From positions 64,001-128,000 of IMG/VR virus record IMGVR_UViG_2912838376_000002: a stretch of 64,000 nucleotides of DNA, one strand, 5' to 3'. This DNA is from a virus. Taxonomy: Duplodnaviria > Caudoviricetes. The stretch's first letter is position 1; every line of letters starts with the position of its first letter. The position numbers and the translations under genes were made by a program. The notes beneath the pieces are model-generated. The model made no database searches and was not told the origin of the DNA. It was given only the letters and a program-made list of their open reading frames with translations. Below, one piece after another: positions 773 through 58,652 of this stretch.

Positions 773-1210
773 TTAATAACCTTGAGTTACATAATCCAAG
801 TTAACCTCGGCTGTAAAGTCATCAAGTGTTTTGATACGCACTTCTGGTCCATTGAATCCATAGGAATCCTCCCAATAATGTGCATATGTATCTCCTCGAT
901 GCACTAACACCACTCGGCCCTTAGCGAATGTTCCATTTTTCTTTCTAGGGATTTTGTCAAACAAGTCTTTCCAATCCCAAGGCATGTATCTTAAGATGGC
1001 ACGGAAACGATCTTCATCTTCTTGTCGTTCCTCTGCAGTCCATCTCTGATCACCCCAAGCATCTTTGTTAACATGGTTAATACCATATTCCTCATCATCA
1101 GGGTCTACATTGAATAATGGAGTCAACCTTTGAGTTAGGCGGTCAATATCACCAGACAAGGTGAACTCGCGCCCTTTTTCATCCTGTTCTCTATATAAAA
1201 TGTTTTCCAT
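773..1210 (-). CDS. Hypothetical phage protein
   Basis: 145-aa ORF with RBS, co-oriented in the operon. Confidence 0.6.
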   Translation of the reverse strand: MENILYREQDEKGREFTLSGDIDRLTQRLTPLFNVDPDDEEYGINHVNKDAWGDQRWTAEERQEDEDRFRAILRYMPWDWKDLFDKIPRKKNGTFAKGRVVLVHRGDTYAHYWEDSYGFNGPEVRIKTLDDFTAEVNLDYVTQGY

Positions 1211-1212
1211 AG

Positions 1213-1461
1213 TTACTCACTACTCCCTATCTCATTCTTCTCTCCAAAAGCTAATGGAAGAAGGAACATAATAATTGCAGCAATAATACGAATAAATACA
1301 TCGTAGGTATCTATCTCATCTAATTTGTAGGAATAGGCAGTAGCTATAACTCCACCTATTGCCCATCCATAAAAGAAATATCTCAATGTCCATAAAGGTT
1401 TCTTACAACACTCAAGAGTTTCTTTTATCTCTCTTTTAAACGATTCAACAAATTTCTTCAT
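1213..1461 (-). CDS. Small membrane protein (2 TM)
   Basis: Two hydrophobic segments; RBS present. Confidence 0.6.
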   Translation of the reverse strand: MKKFVESFKREIKETLECCKKPLWTLRYFFYGWAIGGVIATAYSYKLDEIDTYDVFIRIIAAIIMFLLPLAFGEKNEIGSSE

Positions 1462-2710: not shown

Positions 2711-3826
2711 TTAATTACTCTTGTAGAATTTACAGTCTTCTCTGCACGTAGCAGGACAAGACGCATAGGTTTTAATCGTGTTACAACCATAAACATAGTG
2801 ACCTTTGAAATTGGATCTAAAGAGTGTTTGCAGTTCTCTTTCTGGCAGACTACCATTGTTCCATTCGACTAACATATCCCACGCTTCTTGTTCTGAGTAT
2901 CCTCTCTGTCTCCAAAAAGCAACTATCATACTAGCGATATGATTTCTAGCACCTTTAACGGGTCCGTTATCAATCATCTCTGCATAACACGGTGGGTCAA
3001 AATCAATCGTTTGTGCTTCACCTGTTTTGCTAAATGTTTTCTTAAATCGTTGAACAAACTTATGCTCAACTTCTTTAAAATAACGAGCTGCTTCCGGAAT
3101 TACTCTTGGTTTGTCATACTTAATCCAAGAGCCATAGTTTGGATCTTTACTTAATTGCTGAATGTCTGCTTCTGAACGAGCCAACAAATTCTTTAATTCC
3201 ATTGGTACTTTATAAGAACCTGTAGAAGGATGTTGGCTTCCTTTTAACCTGAACAAGCGACGACGTTCATACACTTTCATATCAAGTGTTTGGTTTGGTG
3301 CAAATGGCATTAATTCTTCTGCCATAATTCGATACATGCGGTCTAAATGAGGATGCCAGTCAACACCGAAACAATGATATGGAACGGTAACATGAATCCC
3401 CTTTTTGCCGCTAAAGAAAACCTTAATCATATTTGCAGGTATTCTATAATTCGGACTAATCGTAAGATGCTGAATGATACGAAGTGCATCTTCTTGAGCC
3501 TTCTTAATATCATCTTCATCATCGAAATCTAAATAAAAATCTCCACGAAGATCCGCTGTATAAGGGTCGCTTGTGCTATACTGAAAAGCTGTTGCATACA
3601 AACCCCATCCAGGATTCTTCTGTATATAATCAAAACAATGCTGATGATAGTTCATCCAGTTCACTTCACGATACTCGTTACGGATAAACATATTGCCTTC
3701 CTTTGTTGGCTTATTACGACCAAATTCCACATAGAATGGTTTTGGTTGTACCATTGATTCAGGCATAGTCGGTGTCTTAACCTCTGCTGCTGCAGGGTGA
3801 TTAGCTAATTGCCCTTGGTAGAACAC
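2711..3826 (-). CDS. Archaeo-eukaryotic primase (AEP/prim-pol) with PriCT-like and Cys-rich C-terminus
   Basis: DFYLDFD, FSGKKGIH and RRLFRL catalytic motifs; GARN PriCT motif; adjacent to the helicase. Confidence 0.85.
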   Translation of the reverse strand: MFYQGQLANHPAAAEVKTPTMPESMVQPKPFYVEFGRNKPTKEGNMFIRNEYREVNWMNYHQHCFDYIQKNPGWGLYATAFQYSTSDPYTADLRGDFYLDFDDEDDIKKAQEDALRIIQHLTISPNYRIPANMIKVFFSGKKGIHVTVPYHCFGVDWHPHLDRMYRIMAEELMPFAPNQTLDMKVYERRRLFRLKGSQHPSTGSYKVPMELKNLLARSEADIQQLSKDPNYGSWIKYDKPRVIPEAARYFKEVEHKFVQRFKKTFSKTGEAQTIDFDPPCYAEMIDNGPVKGARNHIASMIVAFWRQRGYSEQEAWDMLVEWNNGSLPERELQTLFRSNFKGHYVYGCNTIKTYASCPATCREDCKFYKSN

Positions 3827-40441: not shown

Positions 40442-40861
40442 TTAGAGTAATTTCACTCGCTGAACATTCTCTTTTTCTACGTAGGAATCCAATAGAGAAA
40501 GTAAATAATCTTGAGAAGCTTTATTGATTTTTACTTCGTCATAGAATTTAACTTCTCCACCAACAAAGCTTTTTGATTGAGGAGCACGTAGGAAAAGTTC
40601 GCCTGAATTTTCTTTAGAGTTAAACACCACAATACGTGTTTCTCCAATCCCTGCATCAACTAACATCGTTGTGACAATACCAATCCCTTGTTGTTTGGTT
40701 GTAGGTTTAAATAGCTTCACCTTACGAATACCTAGTTCTGCATTTAAATAACCCGACTTGTTTTCTATGGTGAAACGTACTTCTGAATCTTTTGTGATAG
40801 TAGCAGTTGTTGACAATGTAATTCCCTCCAAATAAAAAGGCCCTCCACTAGGGAGAGCCAT
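40442..40861 (-). CDS. Hypothetical protein
   Basis: 139-aa ORF. Confidence 0.55.
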   Translation of the reverse strand: MALPSGGPFYLEGITLSTTATITKDSEVRFTIENKSGYLNAELGIRKVKLFKPTTKQQGIGIVTTMLVDAGIGETRIVVFNSKENSGELFLRAPQSKSFVGGEVKFYDEVKINKASQDYLLSLLDSYVEKENVQRVKLL

Positions 40862-40879
40862 GTTTGTTTTATTTATAAA

Positions 40880-41959
40880 TTAGCTAGCAAATTTGTAGTT
40901 AACACCAGCTTCAGCTGTATGTGTAATGATGACAGACTCCACTTTGATTCCTTTTAATGGCTCATCGTCTTCATCTTGGAATTTCGCTTTTACAAATTCT
41001 CCATCAACAAGCATTTTATGTGCTTCTTCAACGATATTTGCTGGGTTGAAACTCATAGAGAAGTAATCTCCGCCTTGCATATAACCACTAAGTTGAATCG
41101 TTTCACTGAACAGATTGATGCTCTTACTTCTTAATTCGATAGTCTTACCGTTATCAAGAATCACTTTAACGTCATAACGTTGTGAATCTGTTGTTAAGAT
41201 ATTTAAATCACCAATAGCAGAACGGAACGTATAACCCTCATTTAATTCAAATGCAATCGCGCGCAAGCTGTCGTAATTTAACTTTACGCGATTAGCAAAT
41301 GCTACAACATGTTTGATTTCACCGTGATACTGTTCATCAATTTTGTCTTGTAGGTAGATTTCAATTTCAGAAGCAGTTGGGTAATCAAATCGAATATGGT
41401 AATGGAATCGACCAGGACGGCTTAACATAAACTCATTTACCTTATTAAGGTCGTTTACCGTAATCGCATAGATACGTTTCTTCTGAGAAGTACCATCGAA
41501 TAATCCTAGTAAGTTTTCCTGTTTTTCTGCTTCTTCATTGCGAGGATTGAACATCTTTTCAAACTCATCCAAGATAATTAATGCTTCTTGTTCAATTTGT
41601 TCAATGAAGTCAGCAATCCCTGGGAATGCCTTTGTAACCATAATAACTGGGATGCCCTTTTTAACAACTGCTTCTGCAATAAGTTGAACAAACATGGATT
41701 TACCCATCCCTTTGTTACCACTTAAGATAATACCTAAGCTGCGTTCAAACTTATCATATGATTTTAATACTTTACTAATCTTTTCTGGATGACTTCCATA
41801 AATCTTTGATTCTGTTGATTCAAAGTTATCAATCTTCTCTAAAGAGAAACCTGCTCTTGGATTGAATTCTACTTTGTATGTAGCAGCTGGTAGTTTGTCA
41901 TAAATTTTTAAGTCATCACCGTAGATTTTATATGTACTTCCAAAGTTAATAATTTTCAT
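40880..41959 (-). CDS. AAA+ ATPase
   Basis: GNKGMGKS, ILDEFEK, SRPGRFHY; ATG at 41959 after AAGGAG. Confidence 0.9.
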   Translation of the reverse strand: MKIINFGSTYKIYGDDLKIYDKLPAATYKVEFNPRAGFSLEKIDNFESTESKIYGSHPEKISKVLKSYDKFERSLGIILSGNKGMGKSMFVQLIAEAVVKKGIPVIMVTKAFPGIADFIEQIEQEALIILDEFEKMFNPRNEEAEKQENLLGLFDGTSQKKRIYAITVNDLNKVNEFMLSRPGRFHYHIRFDYPTASEIEIYLQDKIDEQYHGEIKHVVAFANRVKLNYDSLRAIAFELNEGYTFRSAIGDLNILTTDSQRYDVKVILDNGKTIELRSKSINLFSETIQLSGYMQGGDYFSMSFNPANIVEEAHKMLVDGEFVKAKFQDEDDEPLKGIKVESVIITHTAEAGVNYKFAS

Positions 41960-42073: not shown

Positions 42074-43699
42074 TCAGTCCCAACGATCAAGCTTGTAAAC
42101 TGCTGTTCCTGTTTTTGTTGTTACACGAACCATTGCGTTCCAAGTTGCACCGTATTGTAATCGAACACCACAAGCAGAAGCTTCGTCGTACTCTTCAATA
42201 GTTGCACCCTTAGAATAAGCTTCAAGAGTTGAGCGAATTTCACGTAACTCTGATTTAAGGATTTCTGGGAACAATGCATTACCAGCACTATTGAATCGAT
42301 TATCTTTTGCTCCATCTAGAATAAGGAATACTGCTTTTCCTTGATGAGTATTTTCGTCATACCACATAGACGGCTGGAATGTAATTGCAGTTACTTTTTG
42401 GTAGCCTGTAGATACATTCCACTTGCTAGCATTTGAACCACCACTGTACACATACCAAGAGAAAGGATTACGTTGCTCTTCTTTATCCCATTGTAAAATA
42501 GGTGGCGCATCTTCATATGAAGCTGTAAGAATAGCTGAGAAGTTATCAACGCTCTTAACTTGGTATTCAATTTCTTCTGCTAATGGAAGAACTGTTTCCA
42601 TGAACTTTCTCCATGTCATAGTGACAGGTGGTACATTCATTTTAGGCAACTCTTTCTTATCTTTTGATTGAAGATGTGAGAAGACTCCTCCACTGCTTTT
42701 CGCAGTTTCTGTTTTACCTTTAGGAGTCCATTCTGTTTTTAATTCTTCTACTCGTGCAAATCGACGACTTAAAGATTTTTGAATTCCTAATTTCTCAACA
42801 ATCTTTTCTGCTTGAGCAATGTTACCTGCTGAAGGAGCTGCTTGTGGACGTTGGTATTGTAATGGATGCATCTTTTCAGCAAATCGACGACTAACTGTAT
42901 CGAATGACATACCAGAAGCGATATCATCAAGAAGCGTTCCAATCATTGAACTTCTAACATGACAGAAACCTGTCGGTGCCGTAGCAACAGCTAACCAAAC
43001 AATGTTTTCTTTATGGCGAGAGTTTTTAACACTATCGCGTTTTGCATGTACTTCTCTAAACCATTCAGCAGTACCTAAGCATTTCTCTGAACGATAAAGA
43101 GATTCTGTTTTTAATAGTCCTACCGCTTGATCCACAACATCAACTGAATACTCCATTAATGCTCTGATAAGCATTTTAAAGTCTTCTAATTTCTCAGCCG
43201 TAACTTGATATGCAGTACGAATTATAGAACGATTTACTAATGTTTGAGGTAATGCGACAGATAAATGAGTCCATTCGCCAGTACGAGGAATACCTAATAC
43301 TCGTGCATCTGGAATGAATACGCCATTCACTCTTGCATTTAGTACAGCTTTTTTCATTGCAGAAACTGCTGGTGCGAAGAAACTTGGTGTAATATCTTCG
43401 TTCCACATTGCAGAATTCATAGTTCCATCTTCATCGATAGTAACAAGACCACCGAAACGATTAATGAAAGTACGACAAGCGTTACAAGTGTAATGCTGAC
43501 GAGCTTCTGCAGGTAGATTATTTAAATAGATTTCATACAATTCACCAACATTTGTAGTGAACAGTTTCTTACCTGATTCAATTGCCATATCAAAGAAGTT
43601 CTTTACGCTTTGTTCAAATTGAGGATACTGATCGTTATTGCTATCCTCTTTGTTATAACCATACCCATTTAAGCTCATTTCTTTATTCATCTTTAACAC
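42074..43699 (-). CDS. Conserved hypothetical protein (541 aa)
   Basis: HYTCNACRTF, CHVRSSMIGTLL; long ORF. Confidence 0.75.
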   Translation of the reverse strand: MLKMNKEMSLNGYGYNKEDSNNDQYPQFEQSVKNFFDMAIESGKKLFTTNVGELYEIYLNNLPAEARQHYTCNACRTFINRFGGLVTIDEDGTMNSAMWNEDITPSFFAPAVSAMKKAVLNARVNGVFIPDARVLGIPRTGEWTHLSVALPQTLVNRSIIRTAYQVTAEKLEDFKMLIRALMEYSVDVVDQAVGLLKTESLYRSEKCLGTAEWFREVHAKRDSVKNSRHKENIVWLAVATAPTGFCHVRSSMIGTLLDDIASGMSFDTVSRRFAEKMHPLQYQRPQAAPSAGNIAQAEKIVEKLGIQKSLSRRFARVEELKTEWTPKGKTETAKSSGGVFSHLQSKDKKELPKMNVPPVTMTWRKFMETVLPLAEEIEYQVKSVDNFSAILTASYEDAPPILQWDKEEQRNPFSWYVYSGGSNASKWNVSTGYQKVTAITFQPSMWYDENTHQGKAVFLILDGAKDNRFNSAGNALFPEILKSELREIRSTLEAYSKGATIEEYDEASACGVRLQYGATWNAMVRVTTKTGTAVYKLDRWD

Positions 43700-49383: not shown

Positions 49384-49472
49384 TGGCAGAGAGGACGAGA
49401 TTCGAACTCGCGCACGTTTTACCGCCTACTCCCTTAGCAGGGGAGCCCCTTAAGCCACTTGGGTACCTCTCT
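49384..49472 (-). tRNA. tRNA-Ser(GCT)
   Basis: Cloverleaf with long variable arm, anticodon loop CTGCTAA, CCA encoded. Confidence 0.9.
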
Positions 49473-49482
49473 GTAGTATTAT

Positions 49483-49599
49483 GGTTGCATTAGTTACCTA
49501 GAACTAGTTCATATCCTAACCAGTAAATAGTTGTTGTATTTCTAGTCTTATAAACTCTAGGGATTAAGTTGTTAAAGAATGACTTCAACTAATATCACC
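49483..49599 (-). ncRNA. Putative structured RNA in a tRNA spacer
   Basis: Ends pair (GGT..TATTAGTTG / TAACTAATG..ACC); inner CCTAGAG/TTCTAGG stem. Confidence 0.4.
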
Positions 49600-49612
49600 T
49601 CTAATATAATTC

Positions 49613-49687
49613 TGGTGAAGGTGGTGGGGAATTGACCCCACGGTCTCTGCTCTTTACCAGTCAGTCTCCAATTTCCGGTTCACCTTC
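49613..49687 (-). pseudogene. tRNA-like element with non-canonical arms
   Basis: Acceptor GAAGGTG/CACCTTC + ACCA; altered T loop; anticodon stem does not pair. Confidence 0.6.
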
Positions 49688-49696
49688 ATATATAAT

Positions 49697-49770
49697 TGGC
49701 AGGAGCAGTAGGAATCGAACCCACAACGGAGGTTTTGGAGACCTCTGTTTTACCTTTAAACTATACTCCT
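49697..49770 (-). tRNA. tRNA-Trp(CCA)
   Basis: Anticodon loop CTCCAAA; CCA end. Confidence 0.92.
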
Positions 49771-49773
49771 ATG

Positions 49774-49860
49774 TGGTGGGAAAGGCAGGACTTGAACCTG
49801 CAATGTATCTTACGTCACGGTTTTACAGACCGCTTGCTTCACCAATTTGCATACTCGCCC
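49774..49860 (-). tRNA. tRNA-Tyr(GTA)
   Basis: Loop CTGTAAA, long variable arm, CCA end. Confidence 0.9.
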
Positions 49861-49874
49861 ATATATAATATGAG

Positions 49875-50004
49875 TAGAACAATCAACAACTCACAGCTTA
49901 TCTTTCAGCGTAGTTTGTAGCAGACTGATCACCTACGCTTATTCAATACCCTAATTTATTCATACAAAGTCTGCACCACGAGGTCCTCGTATGAATTTGT
50001 TCTA
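49875..50004 (-). ncRNA. Putative kissing-loop structured RNA
   Basis: Closing stem TAGAACAA/TTGTTCTA; two hairpins whose loops contain complementary GCAGACT/AGTCTGC. Confidence 0.6.
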
Positions 50005-50179
50005 AAAAGGTTGAGGGCGTTAGCCCTCGTTGGTGTCATACATGTGTGTGTGAAAAATAATGTGAGTAGAGCATCGGAATACTTCTACTCTGTTCGCTAA
50101 GGAACGTAAAAACAATGTGTGTCCTGTTAACTGTACGCCTCCGAAGGGACACTTCTTTTAAGGGGAGACGCACAGCAGA

Positions 50180-50253
50180 TGCCGATGATAGGACTCGAAC
50201 CTACAACCTCCTGATTACAAGTCAGGCGCACTAGCCAATTGTGCTACACCGGC
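50180..50253 (-). tRNA. tRNA-Thr(TGT)
   Basis: Loop CTTGTAA; no encoded CCA. Confidence 0.92.
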
Positions 50254-50262
50254 ATATAAAAA

Positions 50263-50339
50263 TGGCGAGGGTGACGGGACTCGAACCCGCGACCTCTTGC
50301 GTGACAGGCAAGCGAACACTCCAACTGTTCTACACCCCC
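50263..50339 (-). tRNA. tRNA-Asp(GTC)
   Basis: Loop CTGTCAC; CCA end. Confidence 0.92.
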
Positions 50340-50370
50340 ATAATAGAGGGGCCTAAGCCCCTGTTTGATA

Positions 50371-50916
50371 TTAGTGATACAATGATTTGTGTACAGACAA
50401 GATATTAATCTTATCTTCTTCTGTGATAAGACCTTTTGCAAATGCATCTTCTACATGTTGATCTGTAGCATGCCAGTAGAATCGTGCGCTCGCTAAGTAG
50501 CGTACAATATCAAATGAAGTTCCAGTTACTCCATGCAAAGTTGCTTGCGTTTTGTCTATGTCGTAATGTTGAGAACGAGGACCAGATGCACCAACTAAGT
50601 AATGTCCATCTAGCATTTCTTGTGTAATTAAGTCGCCTACTTTGATCGTAGACAGGTCTCCTTGATAAGTCCCTCGCTGCAATTTATTCCCCGAAAGGTT
50701 TGTATAACTTGCACCTAGTCGCACATGAGGTACGAATTGATTAGCATATTCATCATAAACTTGTTCAGGGTATGAAGGCATCTGCCAATCTTGCACCATA
50801 GGATTTTGATTAAAATCATACTCATAGCGCCAAGGAATCTCAATTCGCTTTGTAATTACTTTCGTTTCTCGATCATACTCTAGCACTAAATCATAAAGGT
50901 TTGTCAATAATATCAA
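50371..50916 (-). CDS. Hypothetical protein inside the tRNA array
   Basis: 181 aa; TTG start after AGGAG; followed by a hairpin. Confidence 0.7.
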   Translation of the reverse strand: MILLTNLYDLVLEYDRETKVITKRIEIPWRYEYDFNQNPMVQDWQMPSYPEQVYDEYANQFVPHVRLGASYTNLSGNKLQRGTYQGDLSTIKVGDLITQEMLDGHYLVGASGPRSQHYDIDKTQATLHGVTGTSFDIVRYLASARFYWHATDQHVEDAFAKGLITEEDKINILSVHKSLYH

Positions 50917-50955
50917 ACTCCTTCTAGTTGTATTAGAAACTTATAAAAGTTCTAA

Positions 50956-51028
50956 CGCCCCTACCAGGATTCGAACCTGGACTCTAAGCTTAGAAGGTTC
51001 ATGTGCTATCCTATTACACCATAGGGGC
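50956..51028 (-). tRNA. tRNA-Arg(TCT)
   Basis: Loop CTTCTAA; imperfect anticodon stem; no CCA. Confidence 0.8.
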
Positions 51029-51057
51029 AAAGTGAAACACCTAAACATAAACAAAAG

Positions 51058-51131
51058 TCCGGATGACACGATTCGAACATGCGACCCCTTGCTCCCAAAG
51101 CAAGTGCTCTACCAAGCTGAGCTACATCCGG
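51058..51131 (-). tRNA. tRNA-Pro(TGG)
   Basis: Loop TTTGGGA; no CCA. Confidence 0.9.
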
Positions 51132-51135
51132 ATGA

Positions 51136-51211
51136 TGGTGGAACTGACAGGACTTGAACCTGCGACATCCTGCGTGCAAGGCAGGCGCTCTCCCAGCTGA
51201 GCTACAATCCC
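51136..51211 (-). tRNA. tRNA-Ala(TGC)
   Basis: Loop CTTGCAC, G3:U70 pair, CCA end. Confidence 0.92.
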
Positions 51212-51215
51212 AAGA

Positions 51216-51289
51216 CGGGTTTTACTAGGATTCGAACCTAGGAATTCTGTGGCCATTCAGTGCACCAACCTCTTCTTGCTTTAAAACCC
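51216..51289 (-). pseudogene. tRNA-like element (intact acceptor and T arm, aberrant D/anticodon arms)
   Basis: GGGTTTT/AAAACCC; CTAGG-TTCGAAT-CCTAG. Confidence 0.65.
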
Positions 51290-51299
51290 ATAATATAAT

Positions 51300-51374
51300 T
51301 GGCTGGGAATGATAGATTCGAACTACCGCATCAGAGAGTCAAAGTCCCTTGCCTTACCGCTTGGCTAATTCCCA
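51300..51374 (-). tRNA. tRNA-Gln(TTG)
   Basis: Loop CTTTGAC; CCA end. Confidence 0.92.
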
Positions 51375-51384
51375 ATATAATAAA

Positions 51385-51458
51385 TGGCTCTTGATTGACT
51401 CGAACAATCGACTTCTACCTTATGAGGGTAGCGCTCTAACCAACTGAGCTAAAGAGCC
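51385..51458 (-). tRNA. tRNA with CAT anticodon (Met elongator or Ile2)
   Basis: Loop CTCATAA; no CCA. Confidence 0.85.
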
Positions 51459-51461
51459 AGG

Positions 51462-51536
51462 CACCGAAGGCAGGAGTCGAACCTACACGCCACCGATTGT
51501 TACATCGTTGAGTCTGCCTGTTGAACTTACTTCGGT
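51462..51536 (-). pseudogene. tRNA-like element with ambiguous anticodon
   Basis: ACCGAAG/CTTCGGT; T arm GTAGG-TTCGACT-CCTGC; anticodon loop is not 7 nt. Confidence 0.65.
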
Positions 51537-51537
51537 A

Positions 51538-51611
51538 TGGTGCTAGAAAGAAAAATCAGAAGAACAACTTCCTCTGAACCAAGAGACGGCTTGGACCCTC
51601 CCGAATCTAGC
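51538..51611 (-). ncRNA. CCA-terminated small RNA with acceptor-like stem but no T loop
   Basis: GCTAGA/TCTAGC + ACCA; inner hairpins CCAAG/CTTGG and TCAGAGGAA/TTCTTCTGA. Confidence 0.55.
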
Positions 51612-51622
51612 ATAATATGAGA

Positions 51623-51696
51623 TGACGTATGCCGGATTCGAACCGGCGAATATCGGATAGAAAGTCCGATGACTTAGGCCTCTTGTCGAATACGCC
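51623..51696 (-). tRNA. tRNA-Glu(TTC), atypical U37
   Basis: Stem TCGGA/TCCGA, loop CTTTCTA; no CCA. Confidence 0.85.
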
Positions 51697-51713
51697 ATGA
51701 AAGATATAATCAC

Positions 51714-51811
51714 AATCCGACACCCATTAGCGAAAGAAAATACCGAATGGGGATTCAGTAACACAAAATATAAAATAAAGGAGTGATTGAATGAGACATG
51801 GATGCCGGATT
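51714..51811 (-). ncRNA. Putative sRNA with anti-Shine-Dalgarno-like segment and CCCC loop
   Basis: 14-bp closing helix with two G-U pairs on the minus strand; CATTCAATCACTCCTTT; hairpin TACTGAAT-CCCC-ATTCGGTA. Confidence 0.55.
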
Positions 51812-51818
51812 CTAATTA

Positions 51819-51896
51819 CGGTTGCTAACGCTCTGGAATCGAACCAGATTTGCAAGGGTTATGAGCCCAAGTGAGATTGCCAACCTCCCGCCAGCT
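51819..51896 (-). tRNA. Atypical initiator-like tRNA-Met(CAT)
   Basis: GGG-CTCATAA-CCC anticodon stem, unpaired position 1, irregular acceptor junction, CCG end. Confidence 0.65.
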
Positions 51897-51909
51897 ATAA
51901 TATATAAGA

Positions 51910-51983
51910 TGGAACTTGTAGGACTCGAACCTACGACCGGACGGTTATGAGCCGTCTGCTCTGACCAACTGAGCTAAAGATCC
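51910..51983 (-). tRNA. tRNA-Ile2(CAT), lysidine type
   Basis: GACGG-CTCATAA-CCGTC, close to Bacillus tRNA-Ile2 as recalled. Confidence 0.8.
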
Positions 51984-51990
51984 ATAAATA

Positions 51991-52062
51991 AGCACCTTAC
52001 GGGAATCGAACCCGTACCGTCTGATTGGAAGTCAGAAATCATAGCCATTAGACCAAAAGTGC
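51991..52062 (-). tRNA. tRNA-Gly(TCC)
   Basis: Loop CTTCCAA; U73. Confidence 0.88.
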
Positions 52063-52068
52063 ATGATA

Positions 52069-52143
52069 AGCAGAAGACAGGATTTGAACCTGCGAGATAA
52101 TTGGGTTGCAGCCAATCGCGTTAAGCCACTTCGCCACATCTGC
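52069..52143 (-). tRNA. tRNA-Cys(GCA)
   Basis: Loop CTGCAAC; U73. Confidence 0.88.
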
Positions 52144-52152
52144 ATAATAAAA

Positions 52153-52334
52153 TGGCGTGCATGGTCGGAATCGAACCGCCCTTCTGGACTATGACCTCCT
52201 GCTCTGATACAGTGGCTTACCATAGTCAATCTCCTCACCAATCTAACCGTAACGACTTATCGTTCATCTATGTTTCAGAATACATAGGGCCCCAATAAGC
52301 TTTCGAGAAAGATTCGTTTCTACCTGAGCTGCAC
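52153..52334 (-). ncRNA. ~182-nt tRNA-like RNA with a large structured insertion
   Basis: 5' GTGCA-GCTCAG-GTAGA; 3' GGCGG-TTCGATT-CCGAC-CATGCAC-G-CCA; several inner hairpins. Confidence 0.65.
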
Positions 52335-52340
52335 ATAATA

Positions 52341-52428
52341 TGGCGGAGGGTGAGGGACTCGAACCCCCATCGGTTTTACCCTACGACAGTTTTCAAGACT
52401 GTTCTCTTACCAATTAGAGTAACCCTCC
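52341..52428 (-). tRNA. tRNA-Ser(TGA)
   Basis: Loop CTTGAAA, long variable arm, CCA end. Confidence 0.9.
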
Positions 52429-52436
52429 ACATTAGA

Positions 52437-52516
52437 TACGGACGGAGAGACTCGAACTCTCACGCCGAAGCACTAGATCCTAAGTCTAGCGTGTCTGCCA
52501 ATTCCACCACGTCCGC
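52437..52516 (-). tRNA. tRNA-Leu(TAG)
   Basis: Loop CTTAGGA, variable arm. Confidence 0.92.
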
Positions 52517-52522
52517 ATAATT

Positions 52523-52597
52523 TGGCTCTGACGGTAGGATTCGAACCTACGACCTTTCGGTTAACAGCCGAGCGCACTACCACTGTGCTACGCCAGA
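52523..52597 (-). tRNA. tRNA-Asn(GTT)
   Basis: Loop CTGTTAA; CCA end. Confidence 0.92.
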
Positions 52598-52646
52598 ATA
52601 ATAATATTTAACAACATAAGTACTTATACTGTGATTTTGTTTTCAT

Positions 52647-52675
52647 AACATAAGCACTTCTTTTTTATTTGTCAA
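52647..52675 (-). promoter_or_regulatory. Promoter for the tRNA array (TTGACA-17-TATGTT)
   Basis: Perfect -35, 17-nt spacer, recurring AAGTGCT-TAYGTT -10 region. Confidence 0.65.
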
Positions 52676-52690
52676 CATTTACTTTAATTA

Positions 52691-53011
52691 ATTGCTACCT
52701 ACACAGCCTAGCAGTGATTGAAGGTGTGCATAAAGACCATTTTACTGTTATCTAGGGTTTTTATAATCGTTTATCTTTGTGTTTTAAACTTTATAAAATA
52801 AGAACTTTGAACCCTAATCCTTACACTTTAAACCTTGAACTTTGAGCTTTTCTCACCTGTTTTGATTATTTCTTAATCAAATTTTAATTCGTCCTATACG
52901 AATATTCTCTTTGTAAGTACGCCCATGTATTGGTCATAAATGTTGGAGCTGGGAATTTAACGTCCCCCGGCAAGACGTATACACGTTTTAACGTTCCGTG
53001 TAAGTAGCAAT
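52691..53011 (-). ncRNA. ~320-nt structured RNA with 7-nt periodic repeats
   Basis: 16-bp terminal helix with two G-U wobbles specific to the minus strand; inner hairpins; 7+4 heptamer repeats. Confidence 0.7.
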
Positions 53012-53023
53012 ATTAGTTATAGA

Positions 53024-53650
53024 TTAAGCAGAAATCTCAATGAAAGTAGTGGCATTCGCCTCTGACTTAACTGAGTCTACTTCAATCAAGAATGCATTAA
53101 TTTCTGTTTCAAGCTTCTCAATCTCTTTACGGATTTCGATTGGATCAACCACTTTTGGATTGTAACGTTTTAAGAAGTTTTCCGTAATTTCTTCAACTTC
53201 TGCAGCATGATTCTTACGATCTTTAGAACCAAGGTCTGCTTCTAAACGCTTATCTAAGCGATTCTCCATTTGTTGCTTCTCAATCTCCATCTTTTGATTG
53301 ACTACAGCTAATTGACGTTTTAATTCATTAAGAAGTGATTGCTTGTATTCGATGAATTCTTGTTGATCAATCGCTTCTGCAATTGTCATTTCAACACCAG
53401 CAATATTCACTTTCGTCGTTGCGTTCGCCAAGATTAGCTTTGATTTGATTTCGTTGCGGCGCTTAATTAAGTCCGTTACAGACTGATAACCAGCTGCAGC
53501 AAGTTCTTCAAATTCTTTTGTTGATTGATACCCTTTTGGTTTTTCTTCACCAATTTGGTATGTTACGTATTGCTTGTCATTAATAGAAGAAAGAATACGT
53601 TTATTTAACATTTTTAACTCTGCTAATGCACGATGTAATGATAATTTCAT
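53024..53650 (-). CDS. Coiled-coil protein (DIP1984-like motifs) upstream of the structured RNA
   Basis: HRALAELKML..RI, ANATTKV, MTIAEAI, VVDPI, SEANATTFIEI; RBS GGGAGG. Confidence 0.8.
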   Translation of the reverse strand: MKLSLHRALAELKMLNKRILSSINDKQYVTYQIGEEKPKGYQSTKEFEELAAAGYQSVTDLIKRRNEIKSKLILANATTKVNIAGVEMTIAEAIDQQEFIEYKQSLLNELKRQLAVVNQKMEIEKQQMENRLDKRLEADLGSKDRKNHAAEVEEITENFLKRYNPKVVDPIEIRKEIEKLETEINAFLIEVDSVKSEANATTFIEISA

Positions 53651-53904: not shown

Positions 53905-54888
53905 TTAATATCTTGTTAGATTCGCATAAGATAGAGAAACCCAACCATCATGCACTCTCGCCCATCCACCGCTAATATCGTAGATGTTCCATGTGTCTCC
54001 ACTTGAGATAGTACGAATAATATCTCCGTCTGTCGAAGGTTTAGTGCGGACGTTTAAGTTTGCAGTAGTTGTGATTTTTCCGATTGGATTACGTTTTCCT
54101 GCTAAGTCTTCAGGTGTTCCATTAGAAGAACCTCCTGCAGGTGTAAACTTAACATAAGCAGGTCCTGCTGATACCCACTGGTTTCCTCCAACGTTGTACA
54201 TGCCGTTAGATAATCCCCAAGTCTGGTATGTTTCGCCTTTCTTCACAGTTTTAACAACTCTTGAATCAAAGCTAGCAGATTCACGAACGTTTAATTCTGC
54301 AACAAGAATCTCAACAACACCAATACCATCTGTAGAAGGTGGTGGTGTTACTGGCGGCGCTACAGTTGAACCATTAAGTTCAGCTTGTACTGCTGCTAAG
54401 AAACTATTCCATCGTCCTTCATCTAGGATACGGTGCGGACAATTCTTAACTGTTCTAGAATTACCGTTTTTAACACCAATCTCTGTCCAACTCTTATGAG
54501 TACGAACACGATCAATTCCCCATCCGCGCTCTCTTAGTAATTGAGCAACGAATTTAATAGCTAATGCTTCAGCTTTTGTATATCTTGAACCGCCAGATAA
54601 TGAGTAACAGATTTCAACACCGATAGATTTTCGGTTTCCGTTACCACCACCATCACCACAATGCCAAGCATTACGATCAACCGGAATACCTTGAATAACT
54701 TCGATATCATCTACTGCGAAGTGGAATGAAACCTCGTTATTGTTTCCGATCATGTAGTTTACCTCGTTCTTAGCAGGCGCATCATTATAAGTGTTATGCA
54801 CTGTAATGTACTCTGCTTTCATAGAATAAGGACACTTGATTGGGTATTTGCTTGTAGCCACAAGATTTTGTTTAACTGAAATGGCCAT
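53905..54888 (-). CDS. Endolysin: N-acetylmuramoyl-L-alanine amidase (Amidase_2) + two SH3b domains
   Basis: ITVHNT, SFHFAVDD, AWHCGDG, SIGVEIC, KNCPH; two LNVR repeats. Confidence 0.95.
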   Translation of the reverse strand: MAISVKQNLVATSKYPIKCPYSMKAEYITVHNTYNDAPAKNEVNYMIGNNNEVSFHFAVDDIEVIQGIPVDRNAWHCGDGGGNGNRKSIGVEICYSLSGGSRYTKAEALAIKFVAQLLRERGWGIDRVRTHKSWTEIGVKNGNSRTVKNCPHRILDEGRWNSFLAAVQAELNGSTVAPPVTPPPSTDGIGVVEILVAELNVRESASFDSRVVKTVKKGETYQTWGLSNGMYNVGGNQWVSAGPAYVKFTPAGGSSNGTPEDLAGKRNPIGKITTTANLNVRTKPSTDGDIIRTISSGDTWNIYDISGGWARVHDGWVSLSYANLTRY

Positions 54889-54961: not shown

Positions 54962-57526
54962 TTAAGCTACTTTATTGAACTCTCCTAAACGAAGAGAGAT
55001 AACATATCCATGTTGCTCTTGTGTTGCTCCTTCAATGCCTAATAGAGTTGCTGAATGTTGGTTGCCGTCCAACAATAGAGCTTCAGTCATAGGCACTTGC
55101 CCTTGTGCTACAACTGCTCCGTTTTTACCTACCATTGTTACTAGTTTATTTGTTACAGGGCCGTTTCCTAATTGTAACTCACTCTTTAGGTCAATTCGTT
55201 TGCCGACGGATTGTGCCCAAGATTGCGGTGAGTAGCCCGTCGCAAATCGAATAACTGTTTCAGTCTGAGTTAAATTGCCTGCACCGTCTTGTAAATTGCC
55301 CATTACTTGAACGGTTTGTTTTTGCTCAGTTTGTGTATGGATCCCTGTTTCTTTTAGTGTTTGATTAATAACACCTGCAACTAATCCATTTGCCGCTTCT
55401 GTCAACTCTTGACGAGAAGTTGGTAATACTTGCGTTTGATTACGAATTTCTTGAACAGCTCCACCCATATCTTTTGCTTGAGAATGAACTAGTTCTTGAT
55501 ATCCTTGTGTGTAGTTAGTACCTGCAGTAGGATTGATTAATTGTTTCGCTTCTACAGGATTGTATTCTTTATTCATTAACGCTTCCGCAGATACCGTTTC
55601 TTGTGGAGCGTTTACTACTGGTGCATTTTCAACTACTGGAGTTGTTTGAGTTTCTACAGGAGTAGCTTCTGTCTTAACAGCTGCATGTGCATTAGCTAAT
55701 TCTTGTTGTCTCTCAGCATATACTTCTTCATTAATTGGTAAGAAACTTGTTACTTCACGAGCTTCCCCTTCTTTTTCATAAGGGAATAATGCTACTTCTT
55801 CTAATCGATCAAAGACTAAGAATAGTGATTTACGTTGAGTTCCTTGGTCAACTAATAAGTTAACGTCTGTAATACGAGCTAACCATTTAGAATTACGCAT
55901 TGTTTCTTTTGTTAGTGTGTTTGATGCTGTTGCCATTTCAAATACATCATACATTAATGAAACACGTTTCAGTTGTTCTTCTGGACGAGTGAATAATCCT
56001 AAGTGAACAACTTGTCCAACCATTGCTTTAGCAGCTTCTAAGCTAAACATAGATTCTGCCATTGGGTGTAATGGTAATGCAATTTCATTAGTTAAAGGGA
56101 AATCAGATGGGACTTCACCTTTAGTTACTACTTCTACTGATGTTTGTTCAGTTTGTGTTTCTGCTGCAGGTGTTTGAGAAACTGGCGCCGGCTGCACAGT
56201 TTGTTCAATAACACTAGCATCTAATTTAAATTGAGCGTATGTTTTTCCATCTTGCTCTTTCATCGTGTAATCAAGAATAGTAGCCATGTAGTTGTTTGGT
56301 TTAAGAGCTGTTTTCTCGTCAACACCAACTACAACTGTACCGTTAGCATTCTGCGTAAATAATCGAGCTATTCCATCTGCAGAACTAATTCCGTATTTTT
56401 GAGCCATTACAGCTTCTTTTTGATTTGCGAATGTACCAACAAAGCTTGGATGAAGCATGAAACTAGATACGATAAATGGTTTCTCTTCCACTTCTTCTTG
56501 TGTTGTTGGTTCTACTACTTGAACAGGTTTCTCTTTAGCTACAACCTCTTTAGATTCAGCTTCTTTAACGTGTTCTGGAACTTCACCTTTTTCTAAAAGA
56601 TTTGTAACGTTCTTTACAACCCAGTGATCCTTCTCTAATAATTGAAGGTTTTTATATGTAACATTTGTGTAACGAGCACGAGAACGCTTAGTTACTTCTC
56701 CAAATGAAACTACATCACAAGTAATGAATCCATCGTTCTTAAGATGTTTCTGTACATGCTCTGGGAATTGCTCTAACTTAATTGTCTTAGCAATAGCAAC
56801 TACTTCATCATCTAAGCAAAGCATTAACATGAATGAACGCTTCTCGCGGAAGATAACACCACCACGCTCAATGATTTGATTCATGTGTTCTTCTTCTTTA
56901 GCTGTAGAAATAAGACCAAACTCTTCTACATACTCAGTTTCATCTACTGGTGCTTCTACTGTTTTTACTGTTTCTTCCGTTACCGGTTCTACTTTTACTG
57001 TTGGTTCTTCAATTGGTGTGTCGATTGGTAATTCTACTTGCTCAGCTTCTTCTAATTCTGTTTTAGTTTCGCCTTCCATATCTTCAACAGTTTGAATCTC
57101 TTCAGTATTCATGTCAGCTGCTTCGTATTTTACAGCCGCTTCATCTTCTTTAACTTTAAGAAGTTCTTCTGCTAATTTAGATTCTTCTTCTTTAGCTTCT
57201 TGTTCCATTTGTTGATTGTATAGAGCAGCTGCGTTGTTTTGGTCTAGTTCTGCTCCTAATACTGTTTCCTCTGTTACAGGAAGAACAACATCCTCTGTAA
57301 CTGTTTCAACTGGTGCTACTGTTTTTTCTACATCTGGCACTACTACAGTGTTAGATGATAATGCACTTAGGTATTGTTCAATAACTGTTAACATGCGTTG
57401 CTTAACAGCATTGTCCTCTTCGATGTTTACTCGTTTTAATAAGTGATCAAATTCTTGTACGTTCATTAATATTCTCTCCTTTTCATATGAATCGATTTGT
57501 TTTTGAATTGAATTTACTGTTTTCAT
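54962..57526 (-). CDS. Large acidic E/V/T/Q-rich multidomain protein (854 aa)
   Basis: Long ORF with own promoter motif and RBS GAGGAG. Confidence 0.8.
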   Translation of the reverse strand: MKTVNSIQKQIDSYEKERILMNVQEFDHLLKRVNIEEDNAVKQRMLTVIEQYLSALSSNTVVVPDVEKTVAPVETVTEDVVLPVTEETVLGAELDQNNAAALYNQQMEQEAKEEESKLAEELLKVKEDEAAVKYEAADMNTEEIQTVEDMEGETKTELEEAEQVELPIDTPIEEPTVKVEPVTEETVKTVEAPVDETEYVEEFGLISTAKEEEHMNQIIERGGVIFREKRSFMLMLCLDDEVVAIAKTIKLEQFPEHVQKHLKNDGFITCDVVSFGEVTKRSRARYTNVTYKNLQLLEKDHWVVKNVTNLLEKGEVPEHVKEAESKEVVAKEKPVQVVEPTTQEEVEEKPFIVSSFMLHPSFVGTFANQKEAVMAQKYGISSADGIARLFTQNANGTVVVGVDEKTALKPNNYMATILDYTMKEQDGKTYAQFKLDASVIEQTVQPAPVSQTPAAETQTEQTSVEVVTKGEVPSDFPLTNEIALPLHPMAESMFSLEAAKAMVGQVVHLGLFTRPEEQLKRVSLMYDVFEMATASNTLTKETMRNSKWLARITDVNLLVDQGTQRKSLFLVFDRLEEVALFPYEKEGEAREVTSFLPINEEVYAERQQELANAHAAVKTEATPVETQTTPVVENAPVVNAPQETVSAEALMNKEYNPVEAKQLINPTAGTNYTQGYQELVHSQAKDMGGAVQEIRNQTQVLPTSRQELTEAANGLVAGVINQTLKETGIHTQTEQKQTVQVMGNLQDGAGNLTQTETVIRFATGYSPQSWAQSVGKRIDLKSELQLGNGPVTNKLVTMVGKNGAVVAQGQVPMTEALLLDGNQHSATLLGIEGATQEQHGYVISLRLGEFNKVA

Positions 57527-57706: not shown

Positions 57707-57817
57707 TTAAGAATGGTTTCTTACTTTTCTTTTACAGGTAATACATACATCAGAATAATAATCTACTTTGTGCTTTTTTCTAAGCTTGCAAATAACTGAC
57801 GTTACCTTTTTACACAT
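57707..57817 (-). CDS. 36-aa basic Cys/His peptide (MCKKVTSVICKLRKKHKVDYYSDVCITCKRKVRNHS)
   Basis: Hand-translated; RBS GGAGG; overlaps the ThiF gene end; followed by a terminator. Confidence 0.55.
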   Translation of the reverse strand: MCKKVTSVICKLRKKHKVDYYSDVCITCKRKVRNHS

Positions 57818-58652
57818 TTTTGGCACCTCCTTCCGTTACTGGTCTAACTGGTAATAATGTAGCTCTTGATGAATGAGTAAGAGCGTTAAAATTTGTATAG
57901 TGATGATATAGTCTTCTTTCTGCAAAGATCTGATTTAGGTATCCCATCGTAATCAATGCAGCCATTTCATTTGATTGCATTCTTTGTGGTTGAGAAACAA
58001 TATTCTGCCCACAACTTTGTGAAGGTAAGAGACTTTCATTGTCTTCTAATATGTCTGGATAAACTCCGGCAACCGGTGCAAGCATCGTATCGTTATGATG
58101 TAATCCAACTACACAATGACCTGCGTATCCTGAACGGATTTTTTCTTCATCTGTTCCTTCAAGTAATACACCGTCAACTCCACAATCTATGTAGATGATG
58201 TTATGGTCTTTCAAAAAGTATTCGTGCATAATTTTTCTCGAAGCATGATTATCAACTGCGCCAATTAATACACGGAACAAAACACGAGAAGAATCAAGAA
58301 CATATGTCTCCTGGTTAGAACGGAAACAATTCGATAATTCTTCAACAGACTCTACATATTCTTCACGATGATAGATAGGAAACTGATAAGACATTCCATA
58401 TCTCTCTGCTAATACCTTCGCTTTATTCTTATCTAAATCTCTAGGTAAGAATGGTTGTCTTTGTAAGTTTTTTTCTTCAACTCTATCTAAATCAACTAAC
58501 GTATAATCAAATGTTGTATGACTTGAATTTTTAGTCAAAGAGGATATTAACTTAGCTAATCGCTGAGTTATATATCCCCCATTTCCTCCACAACCAACTT
58601 GTACAATATCAAAATGCATTGTTCTACTTGGATAAAATTCTAGCGCTCTCAT
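57810..58652 (-). CDS. ThiF/E1-like adenylyltransferase (PRTRC-type)
   Basis: VGCGGNGG, DLDRVEEKNLQRQ, NKAKVLAERY, GAVDN..SR, SQSCG (putative catalytic Cys). Confidence 0.9.
   Translation of the reverse strand: MRALEFYPSRTMHFDIVQVGCGGNGGYITQRLAKLISSLTKNSSHTTFDYTLVDLDRVEEKNLQRQPFLPRDLDKNKAKVLAERYGMSYQFPIYHREEYVESVEELSNCFRSNQETYVLDSSRVLFRVLIGAVDNHASRKIMHEYFLKDHNIIYIDCGVDGVLLEGTDEEKIRSGYAGHCVVGLHHNDTMLAPVAGVYPDILEDNESLLPSQSCGQNIVSQPQRMQSNEMAALITMGYLNQIFAERRLYHHYTNFNALTHSSRATLLPVRPVTEGGAKNV

Follow-up and report, generated by a model that had tools for sequence, protein, structure and literature searches.

The window analyzed here, 64,000 nucleotides (nt) of viral DNA covering positions 64,001 to 128,000 of the IMG/VR record IMGVR_UViG_2912838376_000002, carries on its minus strand a gene for a helical-bundle protein of 208 amino acids (aa) (53024–53650; phrog_1491, a homologue of T5.085 of phage T5) and, behind it, a structured RNA element of 321 nt between the outer ends of its closing stem (52691–53011). 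Along the minus strand the order is an endolysin gene (53905–54888; Amidase_2 and SH3 domains), the 208-aa open reading frame (ORF), 12 nt between its stop codon and the RNA, the RNA itself, a further 16 nt, a promoter-like site and an array of 18 tRNA genes (49384–52597), which lies on the same strand as the RNA and begins 93 nt past it. The sigma-70-like promoter (52647–52675; TTGACA, 17 nt, TATGTT), called by consensus match only, heads the tRNA array and is the sole promoter-like site between 52450 and 54000; no terminator-like site was found in the same interval. The RNA stretch is single-copy both in the window and in the whole 244,829-base virus record, and megablast of the region against phage records gave no match. 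We regard it as virtually certain that the element is a genuine conserved, structured RNA of the sense strand, and consider it likely that the gene and the RNA form a functional unit.

The closing stem P1 pairs 53011–52996 (5′ strand) with 52706–52691 (3′ strand) over 16 base pairs, the only G-U pairs being those at positions 9 and 15, which would read A-C on the plus strand; a conserved GGCUG junction motif stands just before the 3′ strand. The 5′ domain contains a pseudoknot candidate of the H type, read by eye at 52951–52978, in which ACGUC/GACGU is interleaved with GGG/CCC; a constrained search of the window sequence chose another pairing (GGGA/UCCC with UAAAU/AUUUA), with a score below the shuffle threshold. 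Next comes a first block of seven in-register 7-nt units (AAAGCUC to AAAGUUC; 52802–52850), a 9-nt spacer (52793–52801) and a second block of four in-register units (52765–52792). In the 3′ domain, the inner helix P2 is formed by CCUAG (52752–52756), located within a conserved AAAAUCC-type motif, and CUAGG (52707–52711), and a helix P3 assigned by eye (CAGU at 52744–52747 with ACUG at 52712–52715) surrounds a short hairpin, P4, so that the two occupy 52712–52747.

The minimum-free-energy fold of the minus-strand RNA has an energy of −76.7 kcal/mol (z = −4.1; 0 of 100 shuffles as good) and includes the inner hairpins AUUCGU/ACGAAU and UUUGAUUA/UAAUCAAA. The plus strand folds nearly as well (z = −3.85), and energy alone therefore cannot pick the strand. 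An earlier examination of the letters of this stretch (hereafter the original prediction) had described the 16-base-pair helix with its two minus-strand G-U pairs 12 nt past the stop codon, the inner hairpins and a strict 7-nt register of seven plus four units. The helix and the register can be read directly from the sequence, the hairpins are part of the minimum-free-energy fold, and the 7-nt period extends to the whole family, as described below.

The search for related loci with the single window protein yielded no confirmed relative; the search with an alignment of the protein family (A1) was successful. The survey covers 85 loci, namely 80 IMG/VR loci, four named phage records and the window; individual loci are cited below by L numbers. 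A first profile built from six downstream regions detected the element in 45 of the 85, and a second-round nhmmer profile of its 3′ half raised this to at least 76, each time immediately behind the gene and on its strand. Inspection of the regions behind homologous genes, which the original prediction had put forward as its check, turned out in its favor as regards the RNA. A covariance model of the 3′ domain matched 66 of the 85 sources and nowhere else in 526 kb; its match in the window spans 52693–52767 (E 6.6e-5). Among the nine loci without an nhmmer match, L069 has no DNA downstream of the gene, and five (L030, L047, L051, L072 and L079) contain divergent versions recognizable by eye, as does L057, where the nhmmer match is weak. 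In these divergent versions, the closing stem and both junctions (GAAA and GCUG) are kept, and the 7-nt repeats consist of a different unit. Because the stem, the junction motifs and the 7-nt register recur in distant phages, the RNA is more than a chance arrangement.

Homologues of the protein occur in 746 phage records, including phages of Salmonella (284), Escherichia (140), Pseudomonas (58), Vibrio (55), Bacillus (33) and others, and the hosts of the module also include phages of Clostridioides, Lactococcus and Xanthomonas. The protein matches 2215 representative clusters; among the matches listed, nearly all are 195–232 aa long. The non-redundant alignment of the RNA (A3) comprises 39 members, in which the distance between the P1 ends ranges from 264 to 429 nt (median 327).

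RNAalifold predicts P1 and P2 on these 39 members. Taken together, 97.0% of the 662 cells of the two helices are standard pairs, compared with 59.6% in shuffles (0 of 500 reach 97.0%), although this value is partly due to construction, the 5′ partner of P1 having been picked by a complementarity search. Pairing falls to 30–48% when the partner column is slid, and 244 cells are changed on both sides versus 70 in shuffles, with both-side changes in 11 of the 12 P1 pairs and four of the five P2 pairs; the P1 sequences themselves are unrelated between lineages. P1 is independently supported by three observations: G-A-A-A, a motif unused by the search, invariably follows its 5′ strand (with G at column 13 in 39/39); this strand lies 5–84 nt past the stop codon in 37 of 39 members (median of 17 nt from stop to RNA); and P2, which was taken straight from the sequence alignment, is paired in 95–97% of the family. 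Among the same 662 cells, 64 are G-U and 20 are unpaired, a ratio that fits the gene's strand only. The excess of G-U over unpaired cells places the helices on that strand and therefore indicates an RNA rather than a DNA element, so the minus-strand RNA postulated from two G-U pairs in a single sequence is now backed by G-U-specific covariation across the family.

The remaining helices were detected with less certainty. RNAalifold on the MAFFT alignment gave P1 and P2 only; P3 and P4 required the model-fitted alignment, where they are paired in 72% and 75%, respectively, both with both-side changes, and we hold with moderate confidence that these two helices are real. In the constrained search, the score of a compact H-type pseudoknot near nt 28–73 exceeded the 95th shuffle percentile in 16 of the 39 members; in the unconstrained search, most members did no better than shuffles. 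The 5′ domain probably contains such a pseudoknot, judging from these sequence comparisons.

Between the two folded domains lies the heptamer array. In the repeat region, A has an autocorrelation of 0.30 (lag 7) and 0.24 (lag 14); the 5′ part gives about 0.03. Lag 7 is the autocorrelation maximum in 26 of the 39 members. The repeat region is exactly 106 nt long in 15 of 39, and in these 15 members the unit is composed of A1 (99%), A2 (81%), A3 (53%), G4 (42%), U6 (87%) and Y7 (86%); the conserved core is therefore U-Y-A-A, repeated every 7 nt. Several lineages share the arrangement of seven units followed, after a 9-nt spacer, by four more, and the repeat unit is kept from Bacillus to Escherichia, Vibrio and Pseudomonas phages. 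RNAalifold predicted no pairs within the repeat region of the 39 members; as P1 joins the two folded domains, the array would be held out as a closed single-stranded loop. Variant lineages replace AAAGnUY with G/U-rich 7-nt units (UGAGUAn, UAAUGAn). They comprise L030–L032 (3380–3460; the result for L031 and L032 is identical to that for L030) and L047, L051, L057 and L079 (about 3380–3500). Several known kinds of repeat were considered for the array and dropped: a Shine-Dalgarno mimic (the T5 units have no GG), Hfq-type ARN repeats (the period is not 3) and an array of T-loop or anticodon-loop mimics (the resemblance is only partial).

Linkage between the gene and the RNA was also examined starting from the RNA. 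A protein-blind scan of IMG/VR with a pattern of the 3′ domain, which reaches only the sub-lineages fitting that pattern (8 of the 85 loci), returned 37 hits. The gene lies upstream on the same strand in 25 of these; seven have too little upstream DNA to tell, four are chance matches rejected by the RNA profile and one (L121) has no gene, so the gene is found upstream in 25 of the 26 testable true hits. The association with the upstream helical protein, as originally proposed, thereby holds in both search directions. No other protein neighbor is conserved, the best family being common to 12 of the 85 loci; the only constant neighbors of the gene are the RNA and tRNAs. The L121 hit (1150–1290, minus strand) is a 3′ fragment of about 100 nt with a motif nearly identical to that of L019; it has no heptamers, 5′ domain or partner gene, adjoins small and large terminase-like ORFs of another phage and is probably a recombination remnant.

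At least one tRNA lies within about 2.5 kb at 56 of the 85 loci, and all 259 of the 259 tRNAs are on the gene's strand. A tRNA starts no more than 20 nt from the 3′ end of the RNA in seven of the 39 members, and no more than 120 nt from it in 15. At five loci, which represent three distinct cases, a tRNA is embedded in the RNA's variable region, which separates the 5′ domain from the heptamers (L040:3213–3287; L066 and L070:3287–3358; L082 and L083:3191–3264); in L072 and L073, tRNA-like stretches were noted in this region by eye. After tRNA processing, an RNA with an embedded tRNA would consist of two pieces held together by P1. The RNA can also be found 1.3–2.3 kb from the gene, as in L002 (1346 nt, with other ORFs in between) and L115 (about 2 kb). 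The tRNA setting and this distance from the gene therefore point to a stable, released, trans-acting RNA, and fit poorly with an obligate element of a 3′ untranslated region (UTR).

Two further features of transcription and gene order were observed around the module. Bastille-like Bacillus phages have a G+C-rich hairpin lacking a U tail, which could be a processing site, between the stop codon and the RNA (L001:3120–3140; L003:3120–3145), and a strong intrinsic terminator follows the RNA (L001:3510–3540; L003:3525–3560). In the window, the array of 18 tRNA genes is interrupted by ORFs and gaps (50371–50916 and 51543–51764, both on the minus strand, and 52152–52340), with a 181-aa ORF sitting between the tRNA-Asp and tRNA-Arg genes; in T5, homing endonucleases occupy similar positions. 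Farther away, the minus strand encodes a protein of 854 aa (54962–57526) with no PHROG or Pfam match and, upstream of it, a ThiF-family protein of 280 aa (57810–58652; PF00899, E 5.7e-9).

The protein encoded next to the RNA matches phrog_1491 with an E-value of 4e-61, its residues 2–207 aligning with profile positions 4–210 of 211. The database labels this family 'tail fiber protein', a label backed by no domain; likewise, the T5 record, where T5.085 adjoins the tRNA region, holds no note supporting it. Pfam, NCBIfam and PADLOC assigned the window protein to no family, with NCBIfam matches at chance level only, and a PDB sequence search with this single protein found nothing. The AlphaFold2 model (predicted local distance difference test score, pLDDT, 96.9) consists of a bundle of antiparallel helices plus a small sheet, and the conserved columns of the protein include two copies of an SNAxT-strand motif. 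Its best structural match is 3kdq_A, an uncharacterised protein from C. diphtheriae (VIA Z 11.6, the next row being 7.8), aligned with a root-mean-square deviation of 6.9 Å over 151 of 152 residues at 20% identity; Foldseek reports the same structure with a probability of 1.00 and E 4.4e-3, and a weak profile match to it has an E-value of 0.025. PF20935 (DUF6847) matches weakly in 14 of 100 family members (best E 0.0013) and does not match the window protein; in the ESM Atlas only viral clusters were found, one of which has DUF6847 in 16% of its members. The phage protein exceeds 3KDQ by about 55 residues, and the sequence matches to 3KDQ and PF20935 are all below family thresholds. The description of the protein as 'DIP1984-like', which goes back to the original prediction, is thus backed to some extent: 3KDQ, which we take to be the DIP1984 protein, is the best structural match and DUF6847 appears weakly in the family, but the deviation of the superposition is large.

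No longer, fused relative of the protein scored in a dedicated search. One protein of 474 aa (P0128) is a natural tandem of two partner-protein domains connected by a basic low-complexity linker, a hint that the domains may work side by side in a multimer. The lineages with variant heptamers (L030–L032; L047, L051, L057 and L079) have V in place of the otherwise 87%-conserved R66, and the proteins of L047, L051, L057 and L079 additionally carry T80N and T202H, which affect both SNAxT motifs. Judged by these alignments, the type of heptamer appears to co-vary with residues of the protein, a suggestive pattern that represents one evolutionary event only.

The T5 copy of the RNA, approximately 357 nt long (about 43140–43496 of NC_005859), lies behind T5.085 and heads the tRNA and stable-RNA region; it carries no feature in that record. 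Among the 60 rows listed of 440 T5-like records, the element bears no feature in 52, five come from unannotated records and three have a hypothetical protein or promoter there; none of the 60 has an RNA annotation at this place. T5 also encodes eight annotated 'stable RNAs with unknown functions' (RNAI, RNAIII, RNA1, RNA2H, RNAIV, RNA2, RNA3 and RNAX), which share the phage, strand and neighborhood with the heptamer RNA; the latter is not among them, and the family profiles have no second match within the 19-kb T5 region. One of the eight, RNAX (719 nt; L085:5569–6287, T5 40848–41566), has a tRNA-like Rfam match at L085 5632–5703 (38.3 bits), and ARAGORN predicts a tRNA-Ser within it at L085 5631; RNAX may be a tRNA-containing large RNA akin to GOLLD and ROOL.

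T5-like sequence is present in the RNA libraries of four studies, as assembled contigs only. In X4, the summed contig depth rises from 230,000–480,000 in the ORF to about 1.1 million in the 5′ half of the RNA (approximately threefold), dropping to about zero within some 80 nt past the 3′ end of the RNA; in X2, the end of the ORF has a depth of about 2,100 and the 5′ half of the RNA one of 17,000–49,000 (approximately 20-fold). X5 and X9 each contain one long contig over the whole stretch and are uninformative on transcript ends, and the gaps beyond about 3575 in X4 are a weak hint in this respect. Contig depth being a poor measure of RNA level, these values give a weak hint that the RNA accumulates above the ORF.

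We tentatively favor, as a quite possible explanation, a trans-acting stable RNA whose single-stranded heptamer loop acts as a periodic platform for a putative oligomer of the partner protein. In such a system, the 208-aa gene and the RNA of about 320 nt would be a two-part module that passes in one piece between large phages possessing tRNA islands. The RNA would be transcribed with the protein gene or just behind it and released as a stable trans-acting molecule by processing that we infer, and the cuts made during processing of neighboring tRNAs would often help to free it. P1 would tie the 5′ domain, with its probable pseudoknot, to the 3′ domain (P2–P4), so that the stretch of about 100 nt between them would form a single-stranded loop carrying eleven A-A-r-n-n-U-Y units at exact 7-nt spacing. 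The partner oligomer would sit on these repeats, with one subunit, or one of the two SNAxT motifs, per unit; one subunit per heptamer had already been suggested in the original prediction. By analogy, the platform may be compared with the repeat RNAs read by TRAP or HutP, or with nucleoproteins of the helical-bundle type that take up a fixed number of nucleotides per subunit. The genomic setting suggests that the particle serves tRNA or translation biology in the infected cell. That the protein binds the heptamers directly and periodically is possible but somewhat doubtful. A still more speculative proposal, which we think more doubtful than credible, is a new class of ribonucleoprotein in which a closed-loop RNA with eleven UYAA heptamers threads around or along an oligomer of a DUF6847-like helical-bundle protein; the particle would be produced from the tRNA island early in infection and act on host translation or tRNA-directed defense, having been overlooked in T5 and more than 700 sequenced phages.

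Several points weigh against the platform hypothesis. The protein is mildly acidic (isoelectric point 5.7 in the window, family median 5.9), and most RNA-coating proteins are not acidic. The protein has two internal motifs, for which eleven units is an odd number, and the co-variation of residues and repeats comes from a single clade. Structural Z values of the size obtained here are common among helical bundles, and 3KDQ has no known function. Finally, the pairing value of P1 and the contig depths are subject to the limits given with them above.

The strongest competitor, which we nevertheless rate as unlikely, is an RNA-centered function as proposed for GOLLD and ROOL: the RNA would self-assemble or engage a universal host component (the ribosome, tRNAs or an RNase) through UYAA, and the protein would merely belong to the same pathway or operon. 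The acidity of the protein speaks for it, as does the conservation of the repeat unit from Bacillus to Escherichia, Vibrio and Pseudomonas phages, which a universal host target predicts, and the genomic niche is that of GOLLD and ROOL, as far as the available part of PMC12286853 describes it. However, the two-way, near-exclusive link with one protein family goes unreported for ROOL in the same part of that source (PMC12286853), the lineages with variant repeats also changed at otherwise conserved protein residues, and no Rfam model matches the RNA, those of GOLLD and ROOL included. A cis-acting 3′ UTR, either stabilizing the mRNA of the protein or serving as an operator for its self-repression, would account for the short distance from the stop codon (median 17 nt; 5–84 nt in 37/39), for the lack of a promoter-like site between gene and RNA in the window and for the Bastille-like intrinsic terminator, which follows the RNA and not the gene. 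We find it improbable: the RNA may lie 1.3–2.3 kb away with other genes in between, excision of the embedded tRNAs would sever it from the mRNA, and about 330 nt with several covarying helices and eleven repeats far exceed the needs of known 3′ stabilizers or operators; the contig depths, weakly, also hint that the RNA is more abundant than the ORF.

The original prediction, which the analysis bears out in part, had also envisaged an RNA antitoxin or inhibitor or, alternatively, an assembly template, and no support was obtained for either. A type III-like toxin–antitoxin or inhibitor pair, where the repeat RNA neutralizes a harmful protein, resembles the locus in that a protein gene adjoins a repeat RNA, both being invariably co-inherited. 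In ToxIN, the repeats stand before the toxin gene, whereas here the order is reversed, with the RNA after the gene wherever it was found; moreover, the units are 7 nt instead of about 36 nt, no nuclease-like fold or family was recognized in the protein by Pfam, PADLOC or the structural matches, and the module is hosted by virulent phages such as T5. We consider such a pair very improbable. Even less credible is an element acting at the DNA level, such as iterons of a replication origin, a packaging site or, with P1 providing the terminal inverted repeats, a miniature inverted-repeat transposable element. Inverted termini around a block of short direct repeats and the nearly equal fold of the plus strand would agree with it, but it is already contradicted by the 64 G-U cells, which would be mismatched (A-C) in a DNA cruciform or on the opposite strand, by helices that covary while their sequences diverge completely, and by the presence of one copy per genome in a fixed place and orientation relative to one gene.

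The RNA belongs to no known RNA family, as originally surmised: cmscan of window positions 52550–53100 against Rfam 15 (E ≤ 10) reported the neighboring tRNA only, and in six loci with other members (E ≤ 1) the matches all lay outside the RNA and were tRNAs or tRNA-overlapping. RNase P RNA, tmRNA, 6S RNA and Y-RNA were considered and set aside, having no Rfam or ARAGORN support. Literature searches on T5.085, DUF6847/DIP1984/PF20935, T5 noncoding RNA, the T5 transcriptome, RNA-motif discovery and ROOL/GOLLD brought up no title or abstract dealing with the element, and we found no published description, Rfam family or GenBank RNA feature for it. The accessible part of a catalog of 10,006 candidate viral RNAs (PMC10690425) does not mention the element, though its supplementary tables could list the heptamer RNA.

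Two kinds of known systems invite comparison with the module apart from ToxIN, whose likeness is restricted to a protein gene adjoining a repeat RNA. The first comprises oligomeric proteins that read short repeats at fixed spacing, namely TRAP with the trp leader and HutP with the hut mRNA: TRAP reads 11 triplets with a (G/U)AG core, and HutP reads NAG separated by 4-nt spacers, which gives a 7-nt period. The heptamer RNA likewise presents several copies of a core of 3–4 nt at fixed spacing in RNA predicted to be single-stranded. It differs in the core, U-Y-A-A, in its candidate protein, which is all-helical rather than a beta-rich ring and whose binding is putative, and in being a separate stable RNA with folded domains of its own, unlike the mRNA leaders. 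Pfam and NCBIfam gave no match to TRAP or HutP and neither is among the structural matches listed, although homology to either may exist.

The second kind comprises GOLLD and ROOL, and both this likeness and the tRNA-island setting had been missed by the original prediction. According to the part of PMC12286853 available, these RNAs are phage-encoded, lie near tRNA islands and sometimes contain tRNAs inside the linker; within the same part, no protein partner is identified for ROOL. The heptamer RNA shares this niche, being phage-encoded, near tRNAs and tolerant of tRNAs in its variable region, and, to the extent that the source covers their structure (PMC12286853), it also resembles them as a structured phage noncoding RNA with pseudoknots (a probable one in its case), a conserved 3′ region and a variable 5′ or linker region. 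Unlike GOLLD and ROOL, whose Rfam models do not match it, it is smaller, carries a phased array of eleven 7-nt units and is accompanied by one dedicated protein gene. We assign it to neither GOLLD/ROOL nor the TRAP and HutP systems and rate it with the large phage RNAs of tRNA islands, set apart by the dedicated gene and the phased repeats; as a third family of these unexplained RNAs, it would be the first with a link to a protein gene. Despite decades of work on T5, the element behind T5.085 is without an RNA feature. T5 in E. coli K-12, where the system comes down to a single small protein and a single RNA, offers a tractable model for RNAs of this kind, and the strict 7-nt phasing provides a sharp, testable prediction on stoichiometric protein–RNA recognition.

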